Origin: Acidobacteriota bacterium
GTDB taxonomy: Bacteria; Acidobacteriota; UBA890; WLXD01
Direction of reading: 5' to 3'
Length of the DNA: 64,000 nucleotides
NCBI GenBank assembly: GCA_965205505.1
Contig: CBDBHB010000009.1
Coordinates: forward strand, 2,144,001-2,208,000
Made by a program: the position numbers and the translations under genes. Below, in pieces: positions 11,519-48,279 of the stretch. Numbering within the stretch: the stretch's first letter is position 1; the number at the start of each line of letters is the position of its first letter. The notes under the pieces are model-generated. The model was not told where the DNA came from and made no database searches. It was given only the letters and a program-made list of their open reading frames with translations.

Positions 11519-11757
11519 CTGACTGGCATCCTTTGGAGATGGAGACCTCGAGGGACATCTGCGCAGGTTCAGTTGGCTCGGTCGGCCTGTCAAGGACCCT
11601 GCAACAGCCTCACGAGATTTGGTCGAGAGGTCCGGAAGACCCCGAGTCGCCCGCTTGCCGGTCAAAAGTGCAGCGGGTATTCTCTGCGATACGAAGCGCT
11701 CGGGGTTCTCCCGAGAGTCGCCTCCCCGAGCCCGCTACCCCCCCCCCGCTCTCTAGC

Positions 11758-12996: not shown

Positions 12997-13042
12997 TGCG
13001 AGCAGTGAGGCGAGCGCTGATGCACAGGAGCAGGAGGGCGCC

Positions 13043-13342
13043 GTGCTGCTGCTGACCTGTCCCAATTGCGGCCCGAGGAACGTGAGCGAGTTCCACTTCG
13101 GCAACGAGTACAATCCCCGGCCGGCGGATCCGGCCGCCGCCAGCGAAGCCGAGTGGGTCGACTACCTGCATCTGCGCAACAACAAGGTGGGGGTACAGAA
13201 GGAGTGGTGGCACCACGGCACCGGCTGCGGCCTGTGGTTCCTTGCCGAGCGACACACCAAGACGGGCGAGGTATTGCGCACCTACCTGTGGCGTCCAGAT
13301 GGCGACGCGGGTCCGGATTCTGAAACAGGGGCGAAGCCGTGA
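13043..13342 (+). CDS. soxD: Sarcosine oxidase delta-like subunit (MgdB by context)
   Basis: GTG after AGGAGG; CPNCGPR..EF and WWHHGTGC Zn motifs. Confidence 0.9.
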   Translation: MLLLTCPNCGPRNVSEFHFGNEYNPRPADPAAASEAEWVDYLHLRNNKVGVQKEWWHHGTGCGLWFLAERHTKTGEVLRTYLWRPDGDAGPDSETGAKP

Positions 13343-16239
13343 AGCGTCTGCCTGCCGGTGGCACTTCGATCGACCGATCGTCGAGCCTGGAGTTCACCTT
13401 CGACGGCAGGAAGGTGATGGCGCACCATGGCGACACGATCGGCTCGGCGCTGGCGGCGTCGGGCGTGCGGGTGATCAGCCGGTCGTTCAAGTACCACCGG
13501 CCTCGGGGTCTGCTTTGTTGCTCGGGCCACTGTCCTAACTGCCTGGTTCAGATAGGCGACGAGCCCAACGCCCGCGCCTGCATGCGGGCGGTGGAAGAGG
13601 GCATGCAGGTGCGTTCGCAGAACGCCTGGCCTTCGCTGCGGTTCGACCTCCTGTCGTTGTCGCGGTTCGCGTCGCGCTTCATGACCGCCGGTTTCTACTA
13701 CAAGACGTTCATCCGGCCGAAGTGGCTGTGGCCCTTCTACGAGCATGTGTTGCGCAACGCTGCCGGCCTCGGCGTGGTCGACCCGAAAACCCCGCGCGGC
13801 AGGTACGACAAGCGCTACCTGCACGCCGACATCGTGGTTGCCGGCGGCGGCCCGGCGGGGATCAGCGCGGCGCATGCGGCCGGTAAGAGCGGCGCGCGCG
13901 TGCTGCTGATCGACGAGAACGCTGAGCTCGGCGGCCATCTCAGGTTTGCCGGCGCGCGACCGGACTCCGAGACGGCCGCGGTCGATCGACTGCGAAGCGG
14001 GCTCGAGGGCATGGACAATGTCGAGGTGCTGACCAATACCTCGGTGCTGGGCTGGTATCGGAACGATTGGCTAGCAGCGAAATCAAGTAACCGCCTCTTC
14101 AAGATTCGCCTGGGTTCGCTGGTGGCGGCAACCGGGGCTTTCGAGCGGCCGCTGCAGTTCGAAAACAACGATTTGCCCGGGGTGATGCTGGGCGGCGCCG
14201 TTCGACGACTGCTGCACCAGTTCGGTGTGGTCGCCGGCCAGCGGGCGTTGGTCGCCACTGCCAACGACGACGGCTGGCACATCGCCGCCGATCTGCGTGC
14301 CGCGGGGGTGGAGGTGGCTGCGATCGTCGACGAGCGCCCTGCCGAGGCGTGCACGAGCCCGCACGGCGAGGCGCTGGCGGCACAAGGAGTGCCGGTCCAC
14401 TACCAGCACACGGTGGTCAAGGCGGTCGGGGGCAAGGGTGTTACTGCGGCCATCATCGCTCAGACCGCCGGCGGCGATGGCGTGGACAAGGGAACTTACA
14501 AGACGGTCGCCTGCGACCTGCTGGTGGTCAGCGTCGGCTGGACGCCGGACACTGACCTCACACATCTTGCCGGCGGCAAGACTCGCTATGACGCCGATCG
14601 CGCCGAGATGCTTCCGACCGAGCTGCCGTCTCATATTCACGTCGTCGGCCGCGCTGCCGGGACGCACGAGCTGGCGGCGGAGCTCCTGGAGGGGGCGATT
14701 GCGGGCCGGGGGGCGGCTCACCGGCTGGGAATCGGGCTGCAGCCGGACGCCGCGCAGGCGGTTGAGCTGCAGCGGCTCAAGAGCTCCGAGCCGCGGCGCA
14801 GCTCGCTGCGCGTGAGCATCCCCGGCGGTAAGCCGAAGAAGCGCTTCGTGTGCCTGTGCGAAGACGTCACGGAGGAGGACATCCTCGCGACCATCGCCGA
14901 AGGGTTCGACAGCATGCAACTGCTCAAGCGCTACAGCACCGTGTCGATGGGGCCCTGCCAGGGCAAGATGTGCTCGATGGCCGCCATCCAGATCTGCGCC
15001 CGGGCGACGGAGCGTTCGATCCCGGACACCGGCACAACGACTTCGCGACCGCCGGCGACGCCGGTTTCACTCGGCACGCTGGCCGGCCAGGAGATGGAGC
15101 CGGTTCAGCTTGGCGCGCTGCACGACTGGCATCTGGCAAACGGCGGCAAGCCGATGGTTGCGGGGGGTTGGATTCGCGCCGAGCACTATGGCGATGCCAT
15201 CGCCGAGGTCAAAGCGGTGCGGGACGCGGCGGGCCTGATCGACGTCAGCTCGCTCGGGAAGCTTCGCCTGACCGGCCCCGGCGTGCCGGACTTGCTGCAA
15301 CGCGTCTACATCAACAAGTGGAGAAAGCTGGGTGTCGGCCAAGCGCGCTACGGTGTGATGTGCAACGACGAAGGCATCGTGCTCGACGATGGTGTCTGCG
15401 CCCGCGTCGGCGAGCAGGAGTGGTACATGAGCACCACTTCCTCCGGTGCGACCGGTATGTACGACTGGATGCAGTGGTGGATCCAATCGGGCTGGGGGGA
15501 AGGTATCCACCTGACCAACGTGACCGAGGCGTTCGCGGCAATGAACCTCGCTGGTCCGCGTACGCGCGAGGTTCTTGCCGACCTTACCGATGTCGACCTG
15601 TCCAACGAGGCGTTCCCCTACATGGGGGTTCGCAGCGGCGCGGTGGCAGGAGTGCCGTGCCGGCTGCTGCGCATCGGTTTTACCGGCGAGCTGTCCTACG
15701 AGATCCACTGCCTGTCGGGCTACGCCGTACACCTTTGGGAGGCGCTGATCGCCGCAGGTCAACCACACGGCATCAAGCCGTTCGGTGTCGAGGCGCAGCG
15801 TGTATTGCGGCTCGAGAAGGGCCATATCATCGTTGGCCACGACACCGACGGGCTCACCGATCCGATCATGGCGAACATGGAATGGGCGGTGAAGCTGGAC
15901 AAGTCCGATTTCCTCGGGATGCGACACCTGAGTCGGGTCGCAGAGCATGGGCCGCATCAGCGCCTGGTCGGCTTCAAGGTCCCCGCCGGCGGCGCCAAGC
16001 CCGAGGAAGGGATGCAAATCGTGGCTGGATCCAACGGCAAGCGGGAGGTAATCGGCTGGGTCACCTCCTGCCGCTTGAGCCCGACCCTCGGAGAGATCAT
16101 CGGGTTGTGCTGGCTGCCGGCGGAGCTGGGTGATCGCGAAGCTGCCGAGTTCACCATCCACGTCGACGGCCGATCGCAGCCGGCGCGCGTTTGGCACGGC
16201 GCTTTCTACGACCCCGAGGGCAAGAGGTTGCGCAGGTGA
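13339..16239 (+). CDS. soxA: Sarcosine oxidase alpha-like subunit (MgdC by context)
   Basis: SRSFKYHRPRG, GGGPAG, CLCEDV/MGPCQG, C-terminal GcvT-like folate domain (GFTGELSYEI). Confidence 0.93.
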   Translation: MKRLPAGGTSIDRSSSLEFTFDGRKVMAHHGDTIGSALAASGVRVISRSFKYHRPRGLLCCSGHCPNCLVQIGDEPNARACMRAVEEGMQVRSQNAWPSLRFDLLSLSRFASRFMTAGFYYKTFIRPKWLWPFYEHVLRNAAGLGVVDPKTPRGRYDKRYLHADIVVAGGGPAGISAAHAAGKSGARVLLIDENAELGGHLRFAGARPDSETAAVDRLRSGLEGMDNVEVLTNTSVLGWYRNDWLAAKSSNRLFKIRLGSLVAATGAFERPLQFENNDLPGVMLGGAVRRLLHQFGVVAGQRALVATANDDGWHIAADLRAAGVEVAAIVDERPAEACTSPHGEALAAQGVPVHYQHTVVKAVGGKGVTAAIIAQTAGGDGVDKGTYKTVACDLLVVSVGWTPDTDLTHLAGGKTRYDADRAEMLPTELPSHIHVVGRAAGTHELAAELLEGAIAGRGAAHRLGIGLQPDAAQAVELQRLKSSEPRRSSLRVSIPGGKPKKRFVCLCEDVTEEDILATIAEGFDSMQLLKRYSTVSMGPCQGKMCSMAAIQICARATERSIPDTGTTTSRPPATPVSLGTLAGQEMEPVQLGALHDWHLANGGKPMVAGGWIRAEHYGDAIAEVKAVRDAAGLIDVSSLGKLRLTGPGVPDLLQRVYINKWRKLGVGQARYGVMCNDEGIVLDDGVCARVGEQEWYMSTTSSGATGMYDWMQWWIQSGWGEGIHLTNVTEAFAAMNLAGPRTREVLADLTDVDLSNEAFPYMGVRSGAVAGVPCRLLRIGFTGELSYEIHCLSGYAVHLWEALIAAGQPHGIKPFGVEAQRVLRLEKGHIIVGHDTDGLTDPIMANMEWAVKLDKSDFLGMRHLSRVAEHGPHQRLVGFKVPAGGAKPEEGMQIVAGSNGKREVIGWVTSCRLSPTLGEIIGLCWLPAELGDREAAEFTIHVDGRSQPARVWHGAFYDPEGKRLRR

Positions 16240-16952
16240 GCGCCGCGAAGCCGGCTTTACTGACGCCCTTGTACGGAGTGACCAAGGGTCTCGGGGCGCG
16301 ATTCGTGGAAACCGGCAACGGCTGGCTCATCGCAGATGCCTATGCCGAGCCGGAGTCGGAGCAGGCCGCGGCGCGCGACCGGCTGGCGATCGCGGACATC
16401 TCGGCGGATGGCAACTTGAGGATCGAGGGCGCCGATGCGGAAACCACACTGCGCGATGCCTACGGGCTGCCGGCACTCGCGATCGGCGAAAGCGCGCCCG
16501 TCGGGAACGGACGCTGTTATCGTTTGCGTGCCGACTTGTTCTCGGTCATCACCGCCCCCGGGGTTGAGGAAACGACCTTCGGCGCGATCGAGTCTGCTGC
16601 GCAATCGGCGGGTCATCGGATCACCGTGACGGTGATGACGCACGGGCAGGCCAGTGTCCGTATAATCGGCCCGCGCGTAGCGGAACTCATGAGCAAACTG
16701 TGCGGCCTGGACTTCAGCCCCGCGGCGTTTCCTGACGGGGTAGCCAAGCGCACGAGCTTCGCGAAGACGGCACAGCTTGTCGTTCGCCGTGACATTGGTC
16801 AGCTTCCCGCCTTCATGGTGGTCGGAGCGCGGTCGGTCGCGGCCTACGTTTGGGAGACGATTCTGGAGGCCGGCGAGGAGTACGGCATCACGCCGATCGG
16901 GCAAGATGCGCTGTCAAAGATCATTGCGGACAGTACTGAGAGGGGAACATGA
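16236..16952 (+). CDS. soxG: Sarcosine oxidase gamma-like subunit (MgdD by context)
   Basis: GTGA overlap with the alpha subunit; KLCGLDF and RSVAAYVWE motifs. Confidence 0.85.
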   Translation: MSAAKPALLTPLYGVTKGLGARFVETGNGWLIADAYAEPESEQAAARDRLAIADISADGNLRIEGADAETTLRDAYGLPALAIGESAPVGNGRCYRLRADLFSVITAPGVEETTFGAIESAAQSAGHRITVTVMTHGQASVRIIGPRVAELMSKLCGLDFSPAAFPDGVAKRTSFAKTAQLVVRRDIGQLPAFMVVGARSVAAYVWETILEAGEEYGITPIGQDALSKIIADSTERGT

Positions 16953-18412
16953 CCGATCTAGAAGCCTATGTTCGTGCCGACGGCCGTGACGAACTGGTCA
17001 AGGAAGTTCGTAAGCAGATCGAAGCACTCGGGATCGAGTACATCTACTACCAGTTTGTTTCGGTAACTGGCCGCATCGTTGGCAAGGGCGCTCCGGCAGA
17101 CCACTGGGAAAAGTTTGCGGAAAACGGCTTTCAGCTCGTCTACGGCTCCACCGCCAACCTGTTCACCGATCGGCACGGCAACTACATCGGCTACGGACCG
17201 GAATCATCCGAGCTCGTCGGCATCCCCGATGCGGAGACGTTCGTCCAATTGCCCTGGGAAAAGCGTATCGGGCGCGTCTTCTGCACCTGCTTCCGCAACC
17301 GCGAAGAGCCGGAGAACCCGGGGGCCTTTCTGACGTCGGACTGTCGCGGCAACCTGCGCCGCACGCAGGAGCAATTCACCGCCGATCATGGACTCGAGAT
17401 GCGCGCGGGTACCGAGCCGGAGATGATGTGGTTGAAGAAGGGTGCCGACGGTCGGCCGGACGGCGGCGTTACGCGGCCCTTCTGCTACCACATCGATCAG
17501 TTCGAAACGCTGCGTCCGGTGGTGCTGCAGGTGGTCGAGTACAGCCGTGCCATGGGTCTCGACATCATCCAGGGCGATCACGAGGACGCTCCCGGACAGC
17601 TCGAGCTCAACTTCACCTACGACGACGCGCTCCGAAATTGTGACCGGCTGACCACGTATCGACAGATCTGCGCCGAGGTCGCCAAGCAGCACAACATGAT
17701 CGCCTGCTTCATGTCGAAGCCGTTCATGGGGGTGTCGGCATCGGGGTGCCACCACAACGTCTCGTTGTGGCGCGGCGGCGAGAACGCCGTCAACAGGCTC
17801 GGCCAGGACCCGGTGCCCGGTATCGAGGAGAACTTCACGTACCGGCGGGGCGGTGAGAACGTCTTCCTCCCGGAGGCCGGGCAGCGCATCCCGTCGGAGC
17901 TCGGACTTCAATGCCTGGGCGGATTGAAAGAGCATCTGCCGGCGCTAACGGCGATCGGCTGCTCGACGGTGAACTCTTACCGTCGCCTGTGTGAGACCGG
18001 GTTCTGGGCACCGATCTTCGCCGACTGGGGCTTCCAGAACCGCACCTGCGGGCTGCGCGTTTCTTCGCCCGACCGCTTCGAGTACCGCGCCGTCGACTCG
18101 ATGGTGAACCCGTACCTCATGGCGTCGGGGATTCTGGCGGCGTTTGACGACGGCATCCGCACCAAGGCCGACCCTGGCCCGCCCGAGGAACGCAACATCT
18201 ACGATGCCATCCAGGAGGGCAAGGAGGTGGTCAAGCTGCCCTTGTCGCTCGGTGCTGCCCTGGATACGCTTGCCGCTGACGAGGTCGTGAAGTCAGCGTT
18301 GCCCGGCGATATGTACCGGGTCTTCATGCACTACAAGACCGATGAGTGGGAGCGGTTCCTCGCTCAGACCACCGAATGGGACCTCGAAAACTACCTGGAC
18401 TGCTTGCCGTAG
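16949..18412 (+). CDS. gmaS: Glutamine synthetase-like gamma-glutamylmethylamide synthetase
   Basis: GTEPE, DHEDAPGQLE, SGCHHN, QNRT, EYR glutamine-synthetase motifs; lies next to mgsABC. Confidence 0.82.
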   Translation: MTDLEAYVRADGRDELVKEVRKQIEALGIEYIYYQFVSVTGRIVGKGAPADHWEKFAENGFQLVYGSTANLFTDRHGNYIGYGPESSELVGIPDAETFVQLPWEKRIGRVFCTCFRNREEPENPGAFLTSDCRGNLRRTQEQFTADHGLEMRAGTEPEMMWLKKGADGRPDGGVTRPFCYHIDQFETLRPVVLQVVEYSRAMGLDIIQGDHEDAPGQLELNFTYDDALRNCDRLTTYRQICAEVAKQHNMIACFMSKPFMGVSASGCHHNVSLWRGGENAVNRLGQDPVPGIEENFTYRRGGENVFLPEAGQRIPSELGLQCLGGLKEHLPALTAIGCSTVNSYRRLCETGFWAPIFADWGFQNRTCGLRVSSPDRFEYRAVDSMVNPYLMASGILAAFDDGIRTKADPGPPEERNIYDAIQEGKEVVKLPLSLGAALDTLAADEVVKSALPGDMYRVFMHYKTDEWERFLAQTTEWDLENYLDCLP

Positions 18413-18436
18413 CGTATCGGCGGAGATAGCGAAACG

Positions 18437-19384
18437 ATGTGTGGAATCGCAGGAATCATTCACCGTAACAAGACCGGCAACGTGGGCGCCGAAATGACCG
18501 GCATGCTTCAGGCCATGAAGCACCGCGGCCCGGATTCGACCGGCTTCGCCTTTTACGGAGTGCCGACTGAAGGCGAACTGCTGTTGCGTTTCAAGGTGGC
18601 CGAGAGCGACGATCTCGCCTCCGGGTTCGAGATTCACGAGGCGATCAAGGAGCGTCGGGCGCAGGTGGACGAGCGCATCGAGTCGATGGGCGGCGAGATC
18701 CAGGTGGCCGAGGCATCGACTGAGTACGCCTTCCTCTATCGCCTTCGATTCGATCCCAAGCTCGATAGTCTGGTACGTCTGGCCGACTACATCGAGGACG
18801 TCGAGGGTGCCGAGGTTCTCTCGATCGGCAATGCGCTCGAGCTCGTCAAGGACCTGGGCGACGCCACCGAGGTCAGCGATCAATACGAGATGGGCAACTT
18901 CGTCGGCACTCACGCCATCGGTCACACACGAATGGCGACGGAATCGGACGTCGACATCCGCTCGGCACATCCCTACTGGGCCTATCCGGTGAGCGACGTC
19001 TGCGTGGTGCACAACGGTCAGCTCACCAACTACTGGAGCAAGCGGCGTGAGCTGGAGCGAACCGGCCACCGCTTTCTCTCCGATTGCGACTCGGAGCTGA
19101 TCGCCGTCTACGTCGCCGAGCTGACCGAACGCGGCAGGTCACTCGAAGAGGCGATGCACCAGTCGGTCGACGAGCTCGACGGGGTGTTCAGCTACCTGGT
19201 TGCTACCAGCGACGCGCTGGGGCTGGCCAAGGACACGATGGCCGCCAAGCCCATGGTCTTGTACGAAGGCGACGACTGCATCGTAATGGCATCCGAGGAG
19301 GTCGCGATCCGCACCGTTTTTCATGAGGAAATTGATACCTTCGATCCGTACGCTGGTGAGGTACTGGTGTGGAGCACCAACTAG
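18437..19384 (+). CDS. Class II glutamine amidotransferase, N-methylglutamate synthase subunit A
   Basis: MCGIAG N-terminal Cys, HTRMATES, AHP, HNGQL. Confidence 0.85.
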   Translation: MCGIAGIIHRNKTGNVGAEMTGMLQAMKHRGPDSTGFAFYGVPTEGELLLRFKVAESDDLASGFEIHEAIKERRAQVDERIESMGGEIQVAEASTEYAFLYRLRFDPKLDSLVRLADYIEDVEGAEVLSIGNALELVKDLGDATEVSDQYEMGNFVGTHAIGHTRMATESDVDIRSAHPYWAYPVSDVCVVHNGQLTNYWSKRRELERTGHRFLSDCDSELIAVYVAELTERGRSLEEAMHQSVDELDGVFSYLVATSDALGLAKDTMAAKPMVLYEGDDCIVMASEEVAIRTVFHEEIDTFDPYAGEVLVWSTN

Positions 19385-19569
19385 TGGCCTGTAAGCAGAT
19401 GATCGTTGCGTATCGTGGCCGCCATCCTCCGGACAGATGGGCAGTTGCGGGCGATATCGGCGTTGCGCCTCGTCGACGATGCCCATTGCATCGCCTTCCT
19501 CGCCGCGCCTTGATCTCACCCGCAAATCCCATCTGCGATATGCAACGATCATCTGATACAGGACACTAG
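19381..19569. mobile_element. IS630-type MITE (189 bp, non-autonomous)
   Basis: About 35-bp terminal inverted repeats CTAGTGGCCTGTAAGCAGATGATCGTTGCGTATCG / CGATATGCAACGATCATCTGATACAGGACACTAG, CTAG at both ends; ends match the IS630 at 54453-55637. Confidence 0.8.
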
Positions 19570-19571
19570 CG

Positions 19572-20408
19572 ATGGCAAAGCAATCGATAAGTGAACCGAT
19601 CGACGTGCACGCGGAACCGCTGAAAGGCCGTTCCCACAAGACCTTCTTTCGGGCCGAGGAGGGGGAGAATCTCGTCTATCCGGACAGTATCGAGGTCGAC
19701 TTCGATCGCTCCGCCGAATTCGATGCCGCCGAGATGGATACCAGTGCGATCAACGTGCGCATCCGCGAGCTCATCGGCGAGGGGCATGGCCACATCATCG
19801 TCCGCAACCCTGGGGCCAAGCACTCCCTCGGGGTCGGAATCCTCAACCGGCTGAAGCTGGAGTTCGATGGCTCGCTCGGCTACTTCGGGATCGGCTTGAA
19901 CGATGGCCCGAACGTACGAATCCGGGGTCGGGTCGGCTGGTCGTGTGGCGAAAACATGATGGCAGGCACCATCGTGGTGGAGAAGAACGCGGGGTCGTCG
20001 TTCGGCGCCGCCATCCGTGGAGGTGATCTCGTCTGCCACGGCGATGTCGGAGCGCGAACCGGGATCAATCAGAAGGGCGGAACGATCATCGTCGGTGGAC
20101 GCACCGGAATGTTGTCCGGGTTCATGATGCAGCGCGGGCGCATGATCGTGCTCGGCGACGCCGGCGATAGCCTCGGCGACTCGATGTACGACGGAACCAT
20201 TTACGTTGGTGGTGAGATCGCGTCGCTCGGCATCGACGCGGTACCCGGCGAGATGACCGATCACGAGGCGGCCTTCTTGCAGCGCAAGCTCGACCTCTAC
20301 GGTCTGGAGGCGCCCAACGGAGTGGAGAAGCTGCAGAAGATCGTCGCAGGCAAACAGCTGTGGAACTACGACAACCTCGAACCCACTGAAAAGAAGATCG
20401 TGCTGTGA
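19572..20408 (+). CDS. GXGXG (GltB/FwdC-like) protein, N-methylglutamate synthase subunit B
   Basis: Repeated beta-helix motifs GENMMAG, GINQKGG, GDSMYDG. Confidence 0.85.
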   Translation: MAKQSISEPIDVHAEPLKGRSHKTFFRAEEGENLVYPDSIEVDFDRSAEFDAAEMDTSAINVRIRELIGEGHGHIIVRNPGAKHSLGVGILNRLKLEFDGSLGYFGIGLNDGPNVRIRGRVGWSCGENMMAGTIVVEKNAGSSFGAAIRGGDLVCHGDVGARTGINQKGGTIIVGGRTGMLSGFMMQRGRMIVLGDAGDSLGDSMYDGTIYVGGEIASLGIDAVPGEMTDHEAAFLQRKLDLYGLEAPNGVEKLQKIVAGKQLWNYDNLEPTEKKIVL

Positions 20409-21748
20409 CCGACAACGGCAAGCGTAACAAGGACATTCTGGGGCAGAACTTCGTGTTCAAGCCCAGCGTCATCGATGACATCCACATCAAGTCGGATCTG
20501 GGCCGTTACCGCATGCGCGGTATGGCGCTGTTCAAGAAGATCCCGACCTGGGACGACCTCACCTTTCTGCCCGGCACGCTCACTCGCTTCGTCATCGAGG
20601 GCTACCGCGAGAAGTGCCTCACGGAGACGGTGATCGGCCCCAAAGCGAAGCGTCCGCTGGTGATGGACATCCCGATCTACATCACCGGGATGAGCTTCGG
20701 CGCGCTGTCCTACGAGGCGAAGGTGGCGCTGGCGCGCGGTGCCACGATGGCCGGAACGGCTACATGCTCGGGAGAGGGCGGCATGCTGCCCGACGAGCGC
20801 CGCTACTCATCGAAGTGGCTCTACCAGTGCATCCAGTCGCGCTACGGATTCAACCCGCACCACTTGCGCCTTGCCGATGCCTGCGAGTTCTTCATCGGAC
20901 AGGGCTGCAAGGTGGGTCTCGGCGGCCACCTTATGGGGCAGAAGGTCACCGATCAGGTGGCGGAGATGCGCAACCTGCCGGCGGGCATCGACCAGCGCTC
21001 GCCAGCACGGCACCCGGATTGGCTGGGACCGGATGACCTGGCGTTGAAGATCGACGAGATCCGCGAGGCCACCAACGGCGAGATCCCTATTCAGTTGAAG
21101 CTCGGATCGGCGCGTGTCTATGACGACGTTCGCATGGCCGCCAAGACGGGCCCGGACAGCATCTACCTTGACGGTATGGAAGGCGCCACCGGCGCCGGGC
21201 CCCATCTGGCCACCGAGGAGACCGGCGTTCCGGGGATCGCTGCGATCCGGCAGGCACGGCACGCGCTCGACGACGTCGGCAAGACGGGCGAGATATCGCT
21301 GGTCTACGCTGGAGGCATCCGCAATGGGGCCGATGTGGCCAAAGCGCTGGCGCTGGGTGCCGACGCCATTGCGATCGGTACGGCGGCGATGGTGGCGCTC
21401 AACTGCAACCGCGACATCCCCGAAGCAGACTTCGAGGGAACGATCGGCGTGCCGGCGGGCTACTGCTACCACTGCCACACCGGTTTGTGCCCCGTGGGTG
21501 TCGCCACTCAGGATCCCGAGCTGCGCAAGCGCTTGGATCCCGACGAAGCGGCGATTCGCGTGTTCAACTTCCTCCACACGCTGGCCATCGAATGTCAGAT
21601 GATGGCGCGCGCCTGCGGCAAGACCAACGTCCACTCACTGGAGCCGGAAGACCTGGCGGCGCTGACCTCCGAGGCCTCGGCCATGGCGGAGGTGCCCATT
21701 GCGGGCACTCGCTACACCGTCGGCCACCCTGAAATGACCCGATTCTGA
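20405..21748 (+). CDS. FMN-binding glutamate synthase-family protein, N-methylglutamate synthase subunit C
   Basis: GMSFGALS, SGEGG, GQGCKVGLGG, CYHCHTGLCPVG. Confidence 0.9.
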   Translation: MTDNGKRNKDILGQNFVFKPSVIDDIHIKSDLGRYRMRGMALFKKIPTWDDLTFLPGTLTRFVIEGYREKCLTETVIGPKAKRPLVMDIPIYITGMSFGALSYEAKVALARGATMAGTATCSGEGGMLPDERRYSSKWLYQCIQSRYGFNPHHLRLADACEFFIGQGCKVGLGGHLMGQKVTDQVAEMRNLPAGIDQRSPARHPDWLGPDDLALKIDEIREATNGEIPIQLKLGSARVYDDVRMAAKTGPDSIYLDGMEGATGAGPHLATEETGVPGIAAIRQARHALDDVGKTGEISLVYAGGIRNGADVAKALALGADAIAIGTAAMVALNCNRDIPEADFEGTIGVPAGYCYHCHTGLCPVGVATQDPELRKRLDPDEAAIRVFNFLHTLAIECQMMARACGKTNVHSLEPEDLAALTSEASAMAEVPIAGTRYTVGHPEMTRF

Positions 21749-21769
21749 TCGAACACAGCGAGAGACAAC

Positions 21770-22186
21770 GTGAGCGACGAAGCCCCAAAGAACGGCGAGT
21801 CCCAAGCGGAGGACGTCGACTACTACCTCAAATCGAGCGGGCTGGATACCGACCGTGAGCTCGAGATCGGTCAGCACATCGGCTACCGGTACGACGTCAA
21901 CCTGGTGCCGGACTACTCGCTGATGACCCCGCTGCTCAAGAGGTACATCGAACACATGGGCTGGCCGGACCTCAACTGGATGGAAGATGTTCACATGGGC
22001 TACGAGGAAGGTCGTTCGGCCGTCTTCGACCGCAACATCAACGGCTGGGTGGCAGTCCCGGAAGATATGGAGCTGCCCGACTCGCAGCAGGAACGCGACA
22101 TGGTGGCGCGCGAGCTGCTGCTGAAATTCCAAATGTCACCGCAGCACCCGCTCTACGACCTGGGAGAGCGGCACAAGAAGTTTTGA
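21770..22186 (+). CDS. Hypothetical acidic protein inside the methylamine operon
   Basis: Clean 138-codon ORF with GC-rich third positions, between mgsC and the flavoprotein; no recognised family. Confidence 0.85.
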   Translation: MSDEAPKNGESQAEDVDYYLKSSGLDTDRELEIGQHIGYRYDVNLVPDYSLMTPLLKRYIEHMGWPDLNWMEDVHMGYEEGRSAVFDRNINGWVAVPEDMELPDSQQERDMVARELLLKFQMSPQHPLYDLGERHKKF

Positions 22187-22256
22187 GGCGTTCTTCTCTC
22201 CAGCGGGGTCGCGACGCGGCCCATATCGATCGACGAGGGTCGATCGCGAGGCCGAC

Positions 22257-23654
22257 GTGAGCGAAACCAAGAAGTGGGGCGCCGACGAGTTCTGGGGGCT
22301 TTCCTATGACTGGGATCCGCAATGGATCCTCACCGCGGAGCAGCAGGAGCTTCAGGCGTCGCTGATCGATCTCTGCCAGAGCACGATGCGTGAGAACGCC
22401 GTGGCGAGCGATCGCGACCTGATCTTTCCGCGCAAGAACTTCGAGGCCCTCGCATCCCTCGGCCTTCTCGGCCTGATAGTGCCGAAGGAGCTTGGCGGGC
22501 GCGGCGAGAGCCATACTTGCATGGCCATGGTGGTCGAGACCATCGCCCGGTATGGATGCGCCAGCACGGCGATGTGCTACACGATGCACGTCAGCGCCGT
22601 CGCCGCGGCGATGCTCCGGGCACACGGTAACGAGACCATTCAGAGCCTGATGCCGCGTCTCGACGACGAGGTCCTGATCGGCACCCTGTCGTACTCGGAT
22701 CCCGAGACGGGCTCGCACTTTTGGTACCCGTTCTCCTCCAGCGCGGAGCGTGTCGAGGGCGGCTGGAAGGTCAACAAGAAGTCATCGTGGACTACTTCAG
22801 GGGGGTTCGCCGACTGGTACGTCATACAGACCACCAGCCCGGACTTCGACGGCGACTACTCGGACCTGTCGGTTTTCCTGATCATGGCCGACGAGATCAG
22901 TGCCGATCCTTCGACCTGGGACGGGCTTGGACTGCGCGGCAACCAGTCGGGGCCGCTGCTGGTGGAGGATAGGACGATTCCCGAGGGTCGCCTTATCGGC
23001 CCGACCGGCGACGGCGCGAGCTCTAATGACGAGGCCGTCGATCCCTTCTTTCTGGCGTGCTCATCGTCCTGCTGGAACGGCATATCGATGGGTCTGATCG
23101 ATATTGCGAAGGGGCATACGACCAAGAAGAAGCACGTCGACGTGGGCATGAGGGTCTGCGATTACCCGACCATTCAGGATTACATTGGCGAGGCCGTGAT
23201 CGATACCAACACGTCGCGCGCGTTCGTCTACCAGTTGACCGCGGCGATAGACAAGAAGACCAACGACTGCGACTGGTCGATCCACGAGGACGTCGCCGTG
23301 CTGCCTCGGTCGACCGTGCTGCACTGGATGTGGCAAGTGAAGTTCACCGCCGCCAAGAACGTCGCCAAGGTTGCCGACAAGATGCTCCACGCTTGTGGCG
23401 GAACCGGCTACAAGCCGGGCCTGGGCATCGAGCGTTACCTTCGCGACGGCAAGGCTGGTTGGGTGATGGGCCCGACCAACGAGGTACTGCGGCAGTTTGT
23501 CGGCAAGGCGGTGTTGTTGGGGTTCGATTCGCTCGACTACTGGAACCAGTCGGTCAACGAGCGCGTGCTCCACAACGAGATCAAGAAGATGGACGCTGCG
23601 GCCAAGAGCGTGCTGGCGCAGAAGCTGCTCGCGGAGGCCGAGGAATCGCAGTGA
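22257..23654 (+). CDS. Acyl-CoA dehydrogenase-fold flavoprotein, non-canonical active site
   Basis: GLIVPKELGG, SYSDPETGS, KSSWTTSG, GLRGNQSG, IERYLRDGK; VMGPT where IYEGT is usual. Confidence 0.88.
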   Translation: MSETKKWGADEFWGLSYDWDPQWILTAEQQELQASLIDLCQSTMRENAVASDRDLIFPRKNFEALASLGLLGLIVPKELGGRGESHTCMAMVVETIARYGCASTAMCYTMHVSAVAAAMLRAHGNETIQSLMPRLDDEVLIGTLSYSDPETGSHFWYPFSSSAERVEGGWKVNKKSSWTTSGGFADWYVIQTTSPDFDGDYSDLSVFLIMADEISADPSTWDGLGLRGNQSGPLLVEDRTIPEGRLIGPTGDGASSNDEAVDPFFLACSSSCWNGISMGLIDIAKGHTTKKKHVDVGMRVCDYPTIQDYIGEAVIDTNTSRAFVYQLTAAIDKKTNDCDWSIHEDVAVLPRSTVLHWMWQVKFTAAKNVAKVADKMLHACGGTGYKPGLGIERYLRDGKAGWVMGPTNEVLRQFVGKAVLLGFDSLDYWNQSVNERVLHNEIKKMDAAAKSVLAQKLLAEAEESQ

Positions 23655-25996
23655 TCCTGTCGCAGCTCGAGGGGCCGCGCTGGGTCGCGGGAGGCCTGCT
23701 CCCCGAGGCGCCCGGCAGGGAGCGATATCGAGTCGCAGGCGGTGGTGCCACCGTCGTCGCGCTGGCGGCCGGTGACCGCATCGACATCACCGACGTCGAG
23801 GGCGGGCAGCGCTGCGAGCTGGCGGTCTTCTCTCCAACCGGCGGCGAGGACAGCGCCGCTCTCAATGTCGCAGCCGACAGCCAGCTGGGCGTACTGGGAA
23901 TTGCGCAAGCTGAGCGGCAAGCCGATACGGACGCCGCGGTCGCCGCTTTGCTGGCGCGTGGTATCGATCCACGTGGCGCGCCGGCACTGCAGCTGTTCCG
24001 CGGCGATGGGCCTCCGGGAGCGGCGGAGTCGTTCACGGCGGAGCGCGACGTCATCTGCATTGTTGGAGCCCCGGGTGGTCCGATGCGCGTCGATGCGCAG
24101 GATCCGCCGACCGACCTGCGGGTGATGGTTCAGCGAGCCCGGGTGACCGAGACCCCAGAGGTACCGCTGCCAACACCACTTGGCGATATGCGTCTCGACA
24201 TGCGCGTCGAGCGCGCCGCTGCATGCGCCTACGAGGTGAAGGCCGGCGAGTACATCCAGGTTATCGACGTGGCCGGACGGCAATGCTCGGATTTTCTCGC
24301 GTTTCGTTCCGGCGCCTTGCAAAACGGGGTGGAGAAAGGTCTCGACGCCACGGCTACTCGAACGCTCATGGGCTCAGCTTATCCGGCACCCGGCCTATAC
24401 TCGAAATTCTATGATCACGACCTGCAGCCGCTTGTCGAGGTCGTGCGCGATACGGTCGGACGCCACGACACCTTCGGGCTGGCATGCACGGCGAAGTACT
24501 ACGAGGACATGGGCTACTTTGGCCACGCCAATTGCTCTGACAACTTCAGCGCCGCCTTGGATCCCTACAGCATCGCATCGCGGCGAGGTTGGCCGGCGAT
24601 CAACTTCTTCTACAATACGCGCATCGACGACAACAACGTCCTGTACCTCGACGAGCCGTGGTCGCGGCCGGGCGACTACGTGTTGCTACGGGCGCTGGAC
24701 GATCTCGTCTGCTTGACCTCGGCTTGTCCCGACGACATCGATGCTGCCAATGCATGGAATCCAACTGAGGTGCATGTCCGTGTGTATCCGGCCAAGAGCT
24801 CTTTTTCGATGGGGATCGCACACCGGATGATTCCTGACGCCGAGCCCAAGCTGACGCGCGAGACCGGGTTCCACCCGCGTACCTCGGCGTTGACTCGGAA
24901 GTTCACCGAATATGGCGGCTACTGGCTGCCGACGGAATTCACCGGCTACGGCGCCATCAAGGAATACTACGCCTGCCGCGAGGGCGCGGTGGTGCTGGAT
25001 CTGTCGGCCCTTCGCAAGTTCGAGGTTCTCGGCCCCGGTGCCGAAGCACTGATGCAGGCCACGCTCACCCGCAATGTGCGCCGCGTAGCCGTCGGTCAGG
25101 TGTCATATACGTCGATGTGCAATGAGACCGGCGGGCTGCTGGACGACGGCACGTTGTTCCGCCTCGGCGCCGACAACTTTCGTTGGATCGGCGGCAACGC
25201 GACGGACGGCATCTGGCTGCGTGAACAGGCCGAGAAACAGCGGCTCAAAGTGTGGGTCAAGTCGTCGTCGGAACAGCTTCACAACATCGCCGTACAGGGC
25301 CCGAGTAGCCGAGATATCCTTCGAGAGGTTGTCTGGACCGCGCCCACCCAGCCGAGCATCGACGAGCTCAAGTGGTTCCGCTTTACCGTCGGCCGCGTAG
25401 CGGCGGCAGACGGCACGCCGCTGCTGGTATCCCGAACCGGTTACACGGGCGAGCTCGGCTATGAGGTCTGGTGCCACCCCGACGATGCCGTTGCCGTTTG
25501 GGATGCGATCTGGGAGGCGGGCGAGCCGCACGATCTGGCGCCGCTAGGCCTGGATGCTCTCGACATCTTGCGCATCGAGTCGGGGCTGATCTTCCCAGGG
25601 TACGAGTACGACGACCAGGTGGATCCGTTCGAAGCAGGCATCGGGTTCACCGTCGACCTCGAGAGCACGGACGACGATTTCGTTGGCCGGGCAGCCCTCG
25701 TCGAGCGCAAAGCGCACCCGCAGCGACTGTTGGTCGGCCTGGAGCTCGAAGGCAGCGAGACCGGTGGTCACGGCGACGGCGTGTACGCCGGTCGCAGTCA
25801 GGTGGGAGTGATCACCAGCGGCACGCGCTCTCCCATCCTGCGAAAGAACATCGCCCTGTGCCGGTTGGCCAAGGAGCACGCCGACCCTGGCACGGAGCTG
25901 GAAGTCGGTAAGCTCGACGGGCATCAGAAGCGCATTGCGGCGACCGTGGTGCAGTTCCCGTTCTATGACCCCGGCAAGAAACGTCCTCGTAGCTAA
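23651..25996 (+). CDS. tdm: Trimethylamine N-oxide demethylase (DUF1989 + GcvT domains)
   Basis: GTG start overlapping the upstream stop; GRQCSDF, HDTFGLAC..YYEDMGYFGHANCSDN..SACPDDID three-Cys site; SRTGYTGELGYE aminomethyltransferase domain. Confidence 0.88.
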   Translation: MILSQLEGPRWVAGGLLPEAPGRERYRVAGGGATVVALAAGDRIDITDVEGGQRCELAVFSPTGGEDSAALNVAADSQLGVLGIAQAERQADTDAAVAALLARGIDPRGAPALQLFRGDGPPGAAESFTAERDVICIVGAPGGPMRVDAQDPPTDLRVMVQRARVTETPEVPLPTPLGDMRLDMRVERAAACAYEVKAGEYIQVIDVAGRQCSDFLAFRSGALQNGVEKGLDATATRTLMGSAYPAPGLYSKFYDHDLQPLVEVVRDTVGRHDTFGLACTAKYYEDMGYFGHANCSDNFSAALDPYSIASRRGWPAINFFYNTRIDDNNVLYLDEPWSRPGDYVLLRALDDLVCLTSACPDDIDAANAWNPTEVHVRVYPAKSSFSMGIAHRMIPDAEPKLTRETGFHPRTSALTRKFTEYGGYWLPTEFTGYGAIKEYYACREGAVVLDLSALRKFEVLGPGAEALMQATLTRNVRRVAVGQVSYTSMCNETGGLLDDGTLFRLGADNFRWIGGNATDGIWLREQAEKQRLKVWVKSSSEQLHNIAVQGPSSRDILREVVWTAPTQPSIDELKWFRFTVGRVAAADGTPLLVSRTGYTGELGYEVWCHPDDAVAVWDAIWEAGEPHDLAPLGLDALDILRIESGLIFPGYEYDDQVDPFEAGIGFTVDLESTDDDFVGRAALVERKAHPQRLLVGLELEGSETGGHGDGVYAGRSQVGVITSGTRSPILRKNIALCRLAKEHADPGTELEVGKLDGHQKRIAATVVQFPFYDPGKKRPRS

Positions 25997-26005
25997 GGGT
26001 TTTCG

Positions 26006-27346
26006 ATGAGTTCTTTACCGGAAGCAAGCAAGTACGTCGTCATCGGTGCGGGTATTCACGGCCTGAGCACCGCCTATCATCTGGCGCTTGAGCTGAAAGC
26101 ACGGGGGCAGGGAAGTGGGGCCGACATTATCGTCCTCGACAAGGAAGGCGTCGGCGTCGGAGCGTCGGGGATTGCCTGCGGCGTAATCCGCAATAACTAT
26201 TTTCAGCCGGCAATGCGCGAGCTAATGGCGCACAGCGTCGAGGTATGGGACAGCGACCCGGAAGCGTATAGCTATCATCCGGTTGGCTACATGCAGATCA
26301 GCCCGGCCGTGATGGAGGCCGATGTCGCGCAGATCTACGAGCAGCAGAAGGCGATCGGCTACGAATCCGAGCTCATTGTCGGAGCGGCCGAGTCCGAGAA
26401 ATACATGAAGGGACTGTTCCACGACTGGAGAGCTCGCGGAATCACCTCCGTCTTGCACGAGAAGAAGGGTGGTTACGCCAACAACATGGCGTCGATGCTC
26501 GGGCTTGCCGGCAAGGCGGAAGGCGTCGGGGTGACGATCCACTCCGGGGTGAAGGTTGCCGGCTTCCAGCACACCGATGCCGGAATCACCGCCGTGGAGA
26601 CCGACCAGGGGACGATCCGCACCGATTACGTCGTCGTGGGTGTGGGCCCGTGGGTGAAGCACATCTGGGACATGCTCGAGCTGCCCAAGACCATCACCGT
26701 CAACGACAACGGCACGGTGCACGAGAACATCCCAATGTGGCGTTACTGGTGCCTGCAAGAGGGCACGCTCGGCGTCGAGCCTGATCTGCAGCGGACAAAC
26801 GACGGCGAGTTGCCCCCGGTGGTGCACATCGACACCGACGCGCCGCTCTACTCCGACCTCGATGGCTCGCTGATTACCGACCAGATATGGGGCATCTACT
26901 ACAAACCGGACTTCAACTTCGGCGGCGTCCAAGGTGGCGCCATGCCCTACAAGGTCGACAAGGATGCCGATGATGTGGCAGTCGATCCATACGGACCCAA
27001 GTCGCCCGACTTCATCGTCGGCGAGGATTTCGCCAACATGTGGTGCTCGGCGCTGGCGTTTTGTCAGGAGCGCTTCGTTGGCAAGTCCGGTCTGTTCCGT
27101 GGCGAGGAGCCGTCAGGCGGCATCGGCTCGTTCACGGCAGACAGCTTCCCGGTATTCGACGTCTTCCGCGGCAACTGCTACTTCGTCGCCGACTCCAACC
27201 ACGGCTACAAGATGCTCGGTGTCGGCAAGCTCGTGGCGGAGGAGATCGTCGGCAATCGGAGCGCGTTGCTCGAACCGTTTCGCTTCTCCCGCTATGCCGC
27301 GGGGAAGTTGCACCCGGTGTCCAACAGCCCGTACCCCTGGAGCTAA
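26006..27346 (+). CDS. DAO-family FAD-dependent oxidoreductase (SoxB-like paralog)
   Basis: IGAGIHGLS, GASGIACGVIRNNY, DSNHGYK. Confidence 0.88.
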   Translation: MSSLPEASKYVVIGAGIHGLSTAYHLALELKARGQGSGADIIVLDKEGVGVGASGIACGVIRNNYFQPAMRELMAHSVEVWDSDPEAYSYHPVGYMQISPAVMEADVAQIYEQQKAIGYESELIVGAAESEKYMKGLFHDWRARGITSVLHEKKGGYANNMASMLGLAGKAEGVGVTIHSGVKVAGFQHTDAGITAVETDQGTIRTDYVVVGVGPWVKHIWDMLELPKTITVNDNGTVHENIPMWRYWCLQEGTLGVEPDLQRTNDGELPPVVHIDTDAPLYSDLDGSLITDQIWGIYYKPDFNFGGVQGGAMPYKVDKDADDVAVDPYGPKSPDFIVGEDFANMWCSALAFCQERFVGKSGLFRGEEPSGGIGSFTADSFPVFDVFRGNCYFVADSNHGYKMLGVGKLVAEEIVGNRSALLEPFRFSRYAAGKLHPVSNSPYPWS

Positions 27347-27451
27347 TGCTACGCCCCACAAATAGTGGTACGCAGCACTGGTCACTAGGCTGATCGGGGC
27401 CTGACGACACGCCGAACACCACGACCGTCTGACGCAGGACACCGAGGAGCC

Positions 27452-27762
27452 ATGGAAAACGAGTTCACCGCCCTTACCGTCATCTTCACGGAGTTCTACT
27501 ACTGGGTTTGTATCGTCCTGATGTTCCTCATCCACGTCGGCTTCTGCCTGTACGAGGTCGGAGTATCGCGAAAGAAGAACATGATGCACACCCTGATGAA
27601 GAATGCGATGGTGATCCCGTTGATCACCGTGACGTTCTTCTTCTTCGGATGGTGGATCTACTTCGCGCTGCAGAACGGACCGGGCATTACCGGCGGCTTG
27701 ATCTCCGCTCCGTTCGCGGTCCCATGGAGCGAGCTCATGGGCACCCACATGGGCGGCCAACC
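27452..27762 (+). pseudogene. amt: Ammonium/methylammonium transporter (Amt) 5' fragment cut by IS3
   Basis: LMFLIHVGFCLYEVGVSRKKN..LMKN..FFFFGW; reading frame runs into the IS end at 27763 and the 3' part is not on the other side. Confidence 0.85.
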
Positions 27763-29022
27763 TGACCTGACCCCACGGTTAGTACCACGTCTTATCTCAG
27801 TAACTCGGTGCTGACAAGGGGTTGTTGAGGCCGGCGAAGCGGAGCGTAGCCGGCTTCAACAACAGCGCCTCCGGGGCCGGTGGTCGGTAGCCCAACGAGC
27901 TGTGCGGTCGCATGCGGTTGTACTGCTGCCTCCATCTCTCGATCAGAACCTTTGCCTCCTTGAGCGTGTAGAAGATCTCGCCGTTGAGCAGCTCGTCTCG
28001 GAGCTTGCCGTTGAAGCTCTCCACGTAGCCGTTCTCCCACGGCGAGCCCGGCTCGATGAACAGCGTGCCCACACCGAGCCTACCGAGCCAGTCGCGAACC
28101 GCCTCGGCGGTGAACTCCGGTCCGTTATCGGACCGGATGTGCTCAGGTATGCCCCGGTGCACGAACAACCACCCGAGCCGCTCGAGCACGTCCTCACAGT
28201 TGAGCTTCCGTGCCACGTCGATCGCCAGGCTTTCTCGTGTGTACTCATCGACGATCGTCAGCAGCCTCATAGCCCGACCCTCGTGCGTCCGGTGATGAAC
28301 GAAGTCATACGCCCAGACGTGATCTTTGCGCTGTGGTCGCAGCCGGATGCACGAGCCATCGCTGAGCCACAGCCGGGCTCGTTTGGGCTGCTTTGTCGGT
28401 ACTTTCAGCCCCTCACGCCTCCAGATACGCTGCACTCGTTTGTGGTTCACCCACCAGCCCTCCATACGCAACAACGCCGTCACTCGCCGATACCCGTAGC
28501 GCCCGTATTGTCGGGCTAGATCCACGATCCGCTCCGTCAACATCTGCTCATCGCCCGGTTCTCTTGGCATGTACCTGTGTGTCGTGCGTGGTTGTTTCAG
28601 TACCCGGCACGCCCGCCTCTCGGAGACGCCCAGCCGCCCCTGTACATGCGCCACCGCCTCGCGCCGTCGAGCTGGGCTCAGAAGTTTCCCTCCGCGACTT
28701 CCTTCAGGATCGACAGGTCGAGCTCTTTCTCCGCCACCAGTTTCTTGAGCCGGGCGTTTTCTTTCTCCAGCTGCTTGAGCCTTCTGGCCTGGTTGACCTT
28801 CAGCCCCCCGTACTCCCGCCGCCACCGATAGTAGGTGTGCTCGGTGATCGCTAGCTTGCGGCAGGCATCCTTGACCGTCCCGCCTTGCGCCAGCTCCACT
28901 TCAGCCTCCCGGAGCTTGCGTACGATCTGCTCGGCGCTGTGCCTCTTCGTCGGCATTCTGACCTCCCCTTTTCGACCCAGATCGTGAGATTACCTCTGGA
29001 TCCGTTTTGGGGGGTCAGGTCA
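27763..29022 (-). mobile_element. IS3 family (IS407-like) element; orfA 28678-28956, orfB about 27797-28681
   Basis: Ends TGACCTGACCCC / GGGGTCAGGTCA; GGGAAAC frameshift window; WAYDF, SDNGPEF and ESFNG DDE motifs; no target duplication. Confidence 0.95.
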
Positions 29023-29195
29023 GGCCTAGTTTGGTGCCGGCGTGAACCAACATCCACGGTCCCTGACACAATCTTGACGAATGCCAGACCCTAATCTGAC
29101 ACGAGAGGCGTAGTCTCTCAGTTTGAGGAGTGGACTCAAAGATCGGCGTGGCTGGCACTAGAAGCGTTATGCCACGTGTCTCCGGAGTTGCCGGC

Positions 29196-42531: not shown

Positions 42532-42687
42532 TGCCATCGTTCAGATCCGGTGCATTCCTGAGTTGACCTATTAGTCCCTAAGCATCAGTAGAGTCAGACA
42601 GTTACGAGTATTCGTCCATCTTGCGTGTTCCCGGACAATCCGCTACATTCCCGCCTTTAATGGCGGAATGAGAGGGGGATGCATAAT

Positions 42688-43716: not shown

Positions 43717-44020
43717 GGAGCAGTACCGGGTCGGTTCCCTGCCTGCTGAAGTGGGTTGGCACACGGCCACGCACGCTACCCTGAAGACGTGTCTACCCCA
43801 CCGCCCCCGTGCCTACGGAGAGATGATATGGACAGAGGTGAGCTCGGCAACGTGCGGATGGGCGATCTCCGCTCGCCCAGGATCAACCTTTCGGGCCGTG
43901 CACTGACGCTGATTCCGGCCGTCATCCTGGGCCTGATGCTGCTGTCCCCATCGATCAGTGGGCCCGGGCCGCACTCCAGGTTGCCCGCCCCGATCCAGAC
44001 CATCGTGCCGGTGCTGCCTC

Positions 44021-44680: not shown

Positions 44681-44794
44681 TCGGCTGCGCCACCCCCGGG
44701 CCGTGGGGGCGAGTTTTCGGAAACTCGCACCTCATGACAGGCCAGAGGTACCCCTGCACAGTGGGAGGAACCACCAAAACCAAGGAGGTTCCTC

Positions 44795-45019: not shown

Positions 45020-45020
45020 C

Positions 45021-46679: not shown

Positions 46680-46710
46680 GGAATAGGGCATTCCGTCGCG
46701 CCGTTGCACG

Positions 46711-46890: not shown

Positions 46891-46906
46891 GGAGGGTGCA
46901 GCAGCC

Positions 46907-48177: not shown

Positions 48178-48279
48178 CCTTCCGCTGGCCCCGGAACGAT
48201 AGGTGACCGTCGGACTCCCCTGCTGAAACGCAATCGGACAGAGACGACCTTGGAGGTACGGGTAGGGTACGGTCAAACC

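Follow-up and report, generated by a model that had tools for sequence, protein, structure and literature searches.

The gene at positions 22257..23654 (forward strand) of a 64,000-nucleotide stretch of an Acidobacteriota genome (positions 2,144,001 to 2,208,000 of contig CBDBHB010000009.1), referred to here as the window, encodes a protein with the acyl-CoA dehydrogenase (ACAD) fold, for which we use the working name ACADx (P0001). It is followed directly by tdm, the gene for trimethylamine N-oxide demethylase (Tdm). ACADx has lost the Glu at both catalytic positions known from ACADs, its gene is linked to tdm and to flavin reductase genes, and its distribution is complementary to that of Tmm, the trimethylamine monooxygenase of the flavin-containing monooxygenase (FMO) type. 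From this sequence-level evidence, ACADx is likely a reduced-flavin oxygenase that acts on a methylated amine in concert with Tdm. The more specific assignment that we rank first, and that has about an even chance of being correct, is to a two-component flavin monooxygenase: as its oxygenase, ACADx would supply Tdm by converting trimethylamine (TMA) to trimethylamine N-oxide (TMAO) in place of Tmm. A role in the oxidation of dimethylamine (DMA) ranks second and is considered below as unlikely.

The ACADx reading frame begins with a GTG codon, preceded by GAGG at 7-10 nt upstream, and encodes 465 residues, about 80 more than typical ACADs, with additions at both the N- and the C-terminus. The N-terminal, middle and C-terminal ACAD domains are all matched by Pfam. 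An AlphaFold2 (AF2) model, built on a 65-sequence alignment, was obtained with a mean pLDDT of 92 and a pTM of 0.89, and superimposes on solved ACADs with Z scores of 44-49 across about 370-385 residues, as calculated by VIA over Foldseek's top 1000 chains. The homology to ACADs proposed in a preliminary description of this DNA is thus firmly established. The Foldseek search against the Protein Data Bank (PDB) gave TM scores on ACADs of 0.73-0.76 by query and 0.85-0.92 by target. Among NCBIfam models, the top match is the Rv1679/FadE16 family NF049984 (E 3e-62), of which ACADx is not a member, its score of 211 bits comparing with a cut-off of 600; the remainder of the 19 matches in all reach about 100 bits or lower, every one far under its cut-off.

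Inspection of phmmer alignments revealed what has become of the catalytic base. The catalytic Glu column of four solved ACADs of the YEGT type corresponds to Gly405, followed by Pro406, in ACADx, and the Glu of the 'LDYER' motif in the isovaleryl-CoA dehydrogenase (IVD) 4o5m aligns to Phe264, with the next Arg aligned to Phe265. We take these two columns to be the catalytic base positions of the medium-chain ACAD (MCAD) type and of the IVD/long-chain ACAD (LCAD) type, respectively. The preliminary description had noticed the string KAGWVMGPTNE in place of IYEGT and had deduced that the usual catalytic Glu is missing; the string lies at residues 399-409, and with Phe264 at the LCAD/IVD-type position no alternative Glu is found there, so that both known positions are without one. 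The replacements are conserved. Across 30 family rows (alignment A1), position 405 is Gly in 28 and Ala in 2, and position 264 is Phe in 27, Leu in 2 and Ile in 1. None of 35 remoter relatives (25-37% identity) carries Glu at either column, and they have the V-M-[G/A]-P motif in common with ACADx. For the Rv1679/FadE16 family, we know of no demonstrated function. Among the VIA structure matches are also the PDB entries 1egd and 1ege, titled 'T255E, E376G mutant' of MCAD. ACADx looks like an independent recruitment from dehydrogenase stock, inside a wider Glu-less clade that includes Rv1679-like proteins.

The same comparisons bear on a quite different explanation, namely that ACADx is a genuine CoA- or carrier-protein-dependent enzyme of the ACAD family, either a dehydrogenase with an unrecognised base or a desulfinase-like non-redox enzyme, which stands beside tdm by chance. 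The best phmmer match of ACADx to solved structures is a true ACAD, 1ws9 (E 2e-26), the high Z scores are to ACADs, the NCBIfam matches at about 100 bits include acryloyl-CoA reductase and 3-sulfinopropanoyl-CoA desulfinase, and Glu409, four residues past the lost base, is conserved. MCAD/IVD-type dehydrogenases (1ws9, 3mdd, 1ivh, 4o5m) have the same fold as ACADx (Z 46-49 and an RMSD of about 2 Å over about 370-385 residues), but ACADx differs from them in lacking Glu at both positions, in its flavin reductase partners and in the lack of a CoA or electron transfer flavoprotein (ETF) context. No acidic residue is present at either known base position, the Arg beside the IVD-type base is replaced by Phe, and no NCBIfam match comes near its cut-off. 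As the preliminary description had stated, no CoA ligase, CoA transferase or ETF gene is found, the search covering 30 scanned ORFs of the window; the closest ETF genes lie about 356 kb past the window end. Flavin reductase neighbors at 50 of 80 loci, the existence of reductase fusions and a linkage to tdm over at least six phyla, which is not chance, likewise argue against a CoA-dependent enzyme, and we regard this explanation as highly improbable.

The connection of ACADx to Tdm is direct. The tdm gene (23651..25996, forward strand) encodes a protein with DUF1989 and GCV_T domains that matches NF053776 with 1210 bits (cut-off 1100). The ACADx stop codon TGA (23652-23654) overlaps a GTG (23651-23653) that is in frame with the Tdm ORF and is the probable tdm start, giving a 4-bp overlap, GTGA; the preliminary description had called the two genes translationally coupled.

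To place ACADx in its family, we scored 8000 candidates from a word-indexed search and obtained 1533 related proteins at E <= 0.001. The best 120 are equal in length and 74-100% identical to ACADx, and carry only the names 'acyl-CoA dehydrogenase family protein' or 'AidB-like' in their sources. The family is tight, with 70-96% identity over at least six phyla, and is reduced to a handful of representatives in a library clustered at 50% identity, after which generic ACADs follow at about 30-37% identity. A scan of one genome per species returned 348 stretches encoding a relative, of which the best 80, in 79 carrier genomes, were used for neighborhood counts. By their record titles, these loci belong to Acidobacteriota, Latescibacterota, Gemmatimonadota, Alpha- and Gammaproteobacteria, Candidatus Udaeobacter and Candidatus Obscuribacterales. 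Cultured carriers among them are Xanthobacter flavus, Dongia deserti and Virgifigura deserti. When the ORFs of all 80 loci were clustered without bias, shadow ORFs over the two large genes having been removed, tdm and a flavin reductase of the PF01613 family proved to be the two dominant neighbors. The tdm gene lies within 8 kb of ACADx, in either orientation, in 56 of the 80 loci. Where at least 6 kb is available on both sides (42 loci), tdm is present in 36, the reductase in 29 and both in 28. Further conserved neighbors occur in part of the loci: a methyltransferase, a cold-shock protein, formate-tetrahydrofolate ligase, an aromatic amino-acid lyase and a fatty-acid desaturase. They were discarded as clues to the substrate, being lineage synteny. 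The Xanthobacter flavus cluster has the order GcvT-like, ACADx, flavin reductase, tdm, permease, dmmA, dmmB, dmmC, in a genome that has no Tmm.

The reductase, of about 180 residues, is encoded within 8 kb of ACADx in 50 of the 80 loci; 49 of these have it on the same strand, and 25 have it no more than 300 bp away. All members of this cluster of 50 match the Xanthobacter protein that Pfam assigns to PF01613. In Latescibacterota loci that share the gene order of the window, it stands between tdm and a gene of the DAO family, a position from which it is missing in the window and its two closest relatives. Some relatives carry the reductase within the same polypeptide: P0123 (53% identity, 770 residues), P0133 (37%, 882 residues) and the fragment P0129 have C-terminal FAD_binding_6 and NAD_binding_1 domains, which make up a Fre/FNR-type NAD(P)H:flavin reductase module. 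These would be self-sufficient versions of the proposed two-component enzyme. Together, the lost base and the reductase neighbors and fusions are, as far as gene content can tell, the genetic signature of a two-component reduced-flavin-dependent oxygenase. In the source genome, the sole PF01613 gene is on another contig (C1), in line with the earlier observation that the window has no flavin reductase, and its product is 45-52% identical to the cluster-encoded reductases. In the region G000:C1:11397-14828 (L081), this gene of 167 codons is located directly 5' of a 488-codon gene of the pyridine-nucleotide-disulfide-oxidoreductase family on the same strand. Because of this neighbor, the C1 reductase may serve another system too.

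The known aerobic route for methylated amines consists of three enzymes, Tmm, Tdm and Dmm, and the distribution of ACADx was compared with all three. The source genome (96.3% complete) contains no FMO-like gene, with no match to PF00743 or to NF058570 (Tmm), and neither a DmmA-like nor a DmmC gene. Even samples were drawn from the source phylum (401 Acidobacteriota genomes) and from the class of Xanthobacter (251 Alphaproteobacteria genomes). In Acidobacteriota, Tdm and ACADx occur in the same 8 genomes, where they are adjacent in 8/8, and ACADx is found in 0/393 of the others; none of the 8 carriers has Tmm. The alphaproteobacterial tdm set comprises 17 genomes, 15 with Tdm over the cut-off and 2 with high-scoring partial matches, of which 7 carry Tmm alone and 6 ACADx alone, while no genome combines the two and 4 are without either. 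ACADx is present in 6/17 tdm-positive against 1/234 other Alphaproteobacteria (Fisher p = 2.5e-7), and in 0/7 Tmm-positive against 6/10 Tmm-negative tdm genomes (p = 0.035, or p = 0.007 for the 15 genomes with Tdm over the cut-off), although these Fisher tests overstate the evidence, since the genomes compared are kin and many are incomplete metagenome-assembled genomes. For Dmm, the marker PF22290 (DmmA-like_N) was rejected as too narrow, exceeding its cut-off in only 3 of 18 genomes, and the profile was for this reason redone with the Xanthobacter DmmC protein. DmmC was found in 3/17 tdm-positive Alphaproteobacteria, and ACADx in 1/3 with and 5/14 without DmmC (p = 1). Across the 79 carrier genomes, Tmm exceeds its cut-off in 4, the Xanthobacter DmmC query finds a match in 5, and 70 have neither.

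The oxygenase chemistry, the substrate and, for the source genome, the partner reductase that we infer can be combined into one scheme. A separate NAD(P)H:flavin reductase would supply reduced flavin: in most relatives the PF01613 protein encoded next door, in the source genome probably the product of the single PF01613 gene on C1, and in some distant relatives a fused Fre/FNR-like domain instead of a separate protein. ACADx would form a flavin C4a-hydroperoxide and hand oxygen from it to a methylated amine nitrogen, most probably turning TMA into TMAO. Tdm would then split TMAO into DMA and formaldehyde bound to tetrahydrofolate. ACADx would in this way fill the single missing step in Xanthobacter flavus, because the cluster there holds tdm and dmmABC and the genome is without Tmm.

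Chemistry of this kind has precedent in the same fold. ACAD-fold (group D) oxygenases include the amino-sugar N-oxygenases KijD3, DnmZ and ORF36 nitrososynthase, as well as isobutylamine N-hydroxylase and DszC, and for this class the passage of oxygen from a flavin hydroperoxide to the lone pair of an amine is unexceptional. Like these enzymes, ACADx has an ACAD fold without the dehydrogenase base, a proposed separate NAD(P)H:flavin reductase, whose gene is often close by, and a proposed oxygenation of a nitrogen or sulfur lone pair. It differs in being remote from them in sequence, and its substrate would be a very small, volatile, catabolic amine, in contrast to their secondary-metabolite intermediates. 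The closest solved ACAD-fold protein labeled as a monooxygenase is 5z8t/5gj7 ('Flavin-containing monooxygenase', 'Acyl-CoA dehydrogenase type 2 domain protein'), which matches ACADx with E 1.6e-23 and TM scores of 0.73/0.85 but only 24% identity; our full-text literature search found no paper for the PDB codes 5GJ7 and 5Z8T. ACAD-fold two-component oxygenases of Acinetobacter baylyi oxidise dimethyl sulfide and dimethyl sulfoxide (PMC13352529).

Tmm and ACADx would share a reaction, TMA to TMAO, and a place in the pathway, directly before Tdm. The tmm gene is also often encoded beside tdm, and among tdm genomes the two enzymes are distributed in a complementary manner. Their folds are unrelated. 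According to the same source (PMC13352529), Tmm belongs to class B and works as a single component, binding FAD and drawing directly on NADPH, whereas ACADx appears to need a separate flavin reductase. ACADx shows no homology to the FMO/class B fold, having only ACAD domains in Pfam and no Tmm model among its 19 NCBIfam matches, and for that reason could only be a functional analog of Tmm. As such a non-homologous stand-in for the FMO-type enzyme, ACADx finds its best reading, one about as likely to be right as wrong. In the Tdm structure paper in eLife (PMC13619132), the terms searched led to no passage on alternative N-oxide substrates.

Several observations weigh against Tmm replacement, and they begin with the fold. 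Superposition on known folds had been suggested as a check; it confirmed the ACAD fold but placed ACADx nearer to true ACADs than to enzymes of the KijD3 type. True ACADs rank first in phmmer, Foldseek and VIA alike, and all 50 of the 50 VIA matches listed are dehydrogenases or other CoA- or acyl carrier protein-dependent enzymes. The top solved ACAD-fold monooxygenase, 5z8t, appears at rank 30 in the Foldseek search with the model, and the matches to 3m9v and 4kcf (E 1e-13) and to 3mxl, 'Nitrososynthase' (E 1e-10), are weak. With true ACADs first in both Foldseek and VIA, structure comparison gave no separation between dehydrogenase and oxygenase and was set aside as a discriminator. The notion of a base-less ACAD-fold oxygenase, put forward in the preliminary description, is well supported by the reductase neighbors and fusions. 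Further points against Tmm replacement come from the genomes. No PF01613 gene is present in the window. The 8 Acidobacteriota carriers belong to only 2 genera, and amount to about two independent cases. A full-length Tdm is missing from one alphaproteobacterial carrier (G127, 62% identity). Tmm accompanies ACADx in four carriers of a Dongiaceae/Virgifigura-like lineage, all of them without DmmC, and in three of the loci (L026, L032, L039) the tmm gene shares a cluster with those for ACADx, Tdm and the reductase, an odd arrangement if the two enzymes had the same function. Finally, 74 of the 79 carriers are without DmmC, from which it follows that, if ACADx only makes TMAO, DMA has no known outlet in most carriers, even though the window has the monomethylamine genes in the ACADx operon. 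That ACADx works with Tdm (8/8 against 0/393 in Acidobacteriota) and occurs in the absence of Tmm is well supported; the TMA to TMAO part is the best reading, at about even chances, and is weakened by the missing Dmm and by the lineage with tmm in the same cluster. In that lineage, a canonical tmm sits between ACADx and tdm (L039:9584-13108, L026:10925-12373). The tmm insertion of L039 brings with it an adenylate-cyclase/TPR regulator gene, and the sister loci L045, L051, L055 and L059 are without the insertion.

The lack of Dmm is the starting point for the second-ranked explanation, in which ACADx is a two-component DMA-oxidising enzyme that takes the place of DmmABC in the step following Tdm. 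Imported TMAO would be converted by Tdm to DMA, which ACADx and the reductase would turn into monomethylamine and formaldehyde, or into an N-hydroxy intermediate, and the product would enter the gmaS, mgs and mgd genes of the same operon. The genes 5' of ACADx fit such a path. On the forward strand, they comprise a gmaS-like gene of the glutamine-synthetase family (16949-18412) and mgsA-, mgsB- and mgsC-like genes for N-methylglutamate synthase (18437-19384, 19572-20408 and 20405-21748), assigned by Pfam and NCBIfam domains, the latter three matching the three domains of glutamate synthase. The gmaS and mgs names were given by analogy with the pathway scheme in PMC5520151, and on this analogy the four genes (16949..21748) would form a monomethylamine assimilation module. 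Further upstream, also on the forward strand, are genes for sarcosine-oxidase-like subunits, soxB-like (11473-12996), soxA-like (13339-16239) and soxG-like (16191-16952), with matches to TIGR01373, TIGR01372 and TIGR01375, each under its cut-off; we read them as N-methylglutamate dehydrogenase (mgd) genes. The methylamine-pathway genes 5' of ACADx are all on its strand and are spaced by 21-70 nt or overlap. The operon of the window holds Tdm and a complete monomethylamine module but no known DMA step.

Other evidence for DMA oxidation is the rarity of DmmC in carriers noted above, together with the lack of DmmA-like and DmmC genes from the source genome. On this reading, every step would have exactly one enzyme in L026, L032 and L039, which hold tmm, tdm, the reductase and ACADx in genomes without DmmC. 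A search for OpuAC-family binding proteins, taken as a proxy for TMAO import, found two in the source genome, encoded far from the cluster; this leaves room for import but is uninformative. That many tmm/tdm organisms lack a DMA step is acknowledged as a gap in PMC5520151, which extends it to Tmm-bearing organisms such as SAR11. In Alphaproteobacteria, however, the presence of ACADx tracks the lack of Tmm and not the lack of Dmm. It is found in 0/6 of the tdm-positive genomes with Tmm but without DmmC, where a DMA-oxidising enzyme would be needed, and for this reason ACADx is not a general answer to the DMA gap. Xanthobacter-type clusters (5 genomes) combine ACADx with dmmABC and are without Tmm, and the clusters carry transporters of the Amt or APC families, not a TMAO binding protein. 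In addition, we know of no precedent for oxidative N-demethylation by ACAD-fold oxygenases, unlike N- and S-oxygenation. On balance, we consider DMA oxidation unlikely, although it is the foremost alternative to TMA N-oxygenation.

The boldest reading combines the two functions. ACADx and Tdm could form an iterative demethylation machine, in which ACADx would N-oxygenate both TMA, to TMAO, and DMA, to N,N-dimethylhydroxylamine (a tautomer of DMA N-oxide), and Tdm would demethylate both products. With a flavin reductase, these two proteins would then suffice to take TMA as far as monomethylamine, and neither Tmm nor DmmABC would be needed. If true, this dual role would explain the 70 of 79 carriers without Tmm and DmmC, the tight bond to tdm and the shared monomethylamine operon; we regard it as rather unlikely, and slightly more so than DMA oxidation alone.

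The substrate might also be another small nitrogen or sulfur compound, with ACADx as a reduced-flavin oxygenase associated with Tdm. Candidates are a tertiary amine other than TMA, with an N-oxide that Tdm would demethylate, N-methylhydroxylamine, and a nitroalkane or nitronate. No substrate is assigned to the wider Glu-less clade, to which the Rv1679/FadE16-like relatives belong, and the member in G127 is without a full Tdm and lies among unrelated genes. Within the two sampled groups, Tdm co-occurs with and adjoins ACADx in 14/15 carriers; the 70-96% identity maintained across phyla suggests one conserved job, and the operon partners in the window are all methylamine-pathway genes. These points make another substrate improbable, and TMA N-oxygenation is retained as the leading assignment. 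The G127 member is the most divergent one (L086:14839-16236 and L090), and its neighbors are genes for a UDP-glycosyltransferase, a PhyH dioxygenase, a 751-residue OYE/FadH-like flavoenzyme and xanthine-dehydrogenase-like proteins; a different substrate is possible for it. The OYE/FadH-like neighbor could be assigned neither to TMA nor to DMA dehydrogenase.

The remaining genes near ACADx provide further candidates. Between mgsC and ACADx is a conserved ORF of 138 codons (21770..22186, forward strand) with no Pfam or NCBIfam match. Its family follows mgsC in 21 of the 80 loci and stays with mgsC where the latter is apart from ACADx (L041, L045, L051), and its product appears to be an overlooked partner of N-methylglutamate synthase. 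A forward-strand gene that begins 9 nt past tdm (26006..27346) encodes a 446-residue FAD oxidoreductase of the DAO family, with PF01266 matched in the N-terminal half only. Its cluster is found in 9 loci, and elsewhere the gene adjoins gmaS (L019, L024, L041, L061). This flavoprotein is a candidate for DMA oxidation or for a single-subunit N-methylglutamate dehydrogenase. The first 104 codons of an Amt-family transporter gene follow (27452..27763, forward strand), interrupted at 27763, and the remainder of the gene was not found in the window; the intact transporter after the cluster in the related locus L002 has 463 residues. The interruption is caused by an IS3-family insertion element (27761..29024, reverse strand), whose 14-nt terminal inverted repeats (27761-27774 and 29011-29024) are perfect and whose transposase ORF occupies 27797-28825 (reverse strand); synteny with the related loci stops at this element. 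A region with mobile-element genes extends from 42679 to 55598 and contains a phage-type integrase (42679-43716), a DnaB-like helicase/AAA gene (45021-46679) and a DDE transposase (54453-55598). A scan of 11000-28000 for promoters and terminators revealed no more sites than in shuffled sequence. The stretch is contained in 20 sequencing runs from 10 studies, and none of those listed is RNA.

In our full-text literature search, we found no description of an ACAD-fold or two-component TMA monooxygenase, nor of an ACADx gene beside tdm. Enzymes of this kind are known; what appears to be new is the recruitment of one to the catabolism of methylated amines, where it would be widespread as a partner of Tdm in place of Tmm. 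TMA, TMAO and DMA circulate as major forms of nitrogen and carbon, and climate-active aerosols arise from them. The ACADx family is conserved and uncharacterised, and is carried by soil and freshwater lineages that include Dongiaceae, Xanthobacter, Udaeobacter and Obscuribacterales. If ACADx oxidises DMA, it would fill the known 'DMA bottleneck', to which the dual role would likewise offer an answer. If it is a TMA N-oxygenase, gene surveys based on tmm would miss a large share of the TMA oxidisers outside the ocean.

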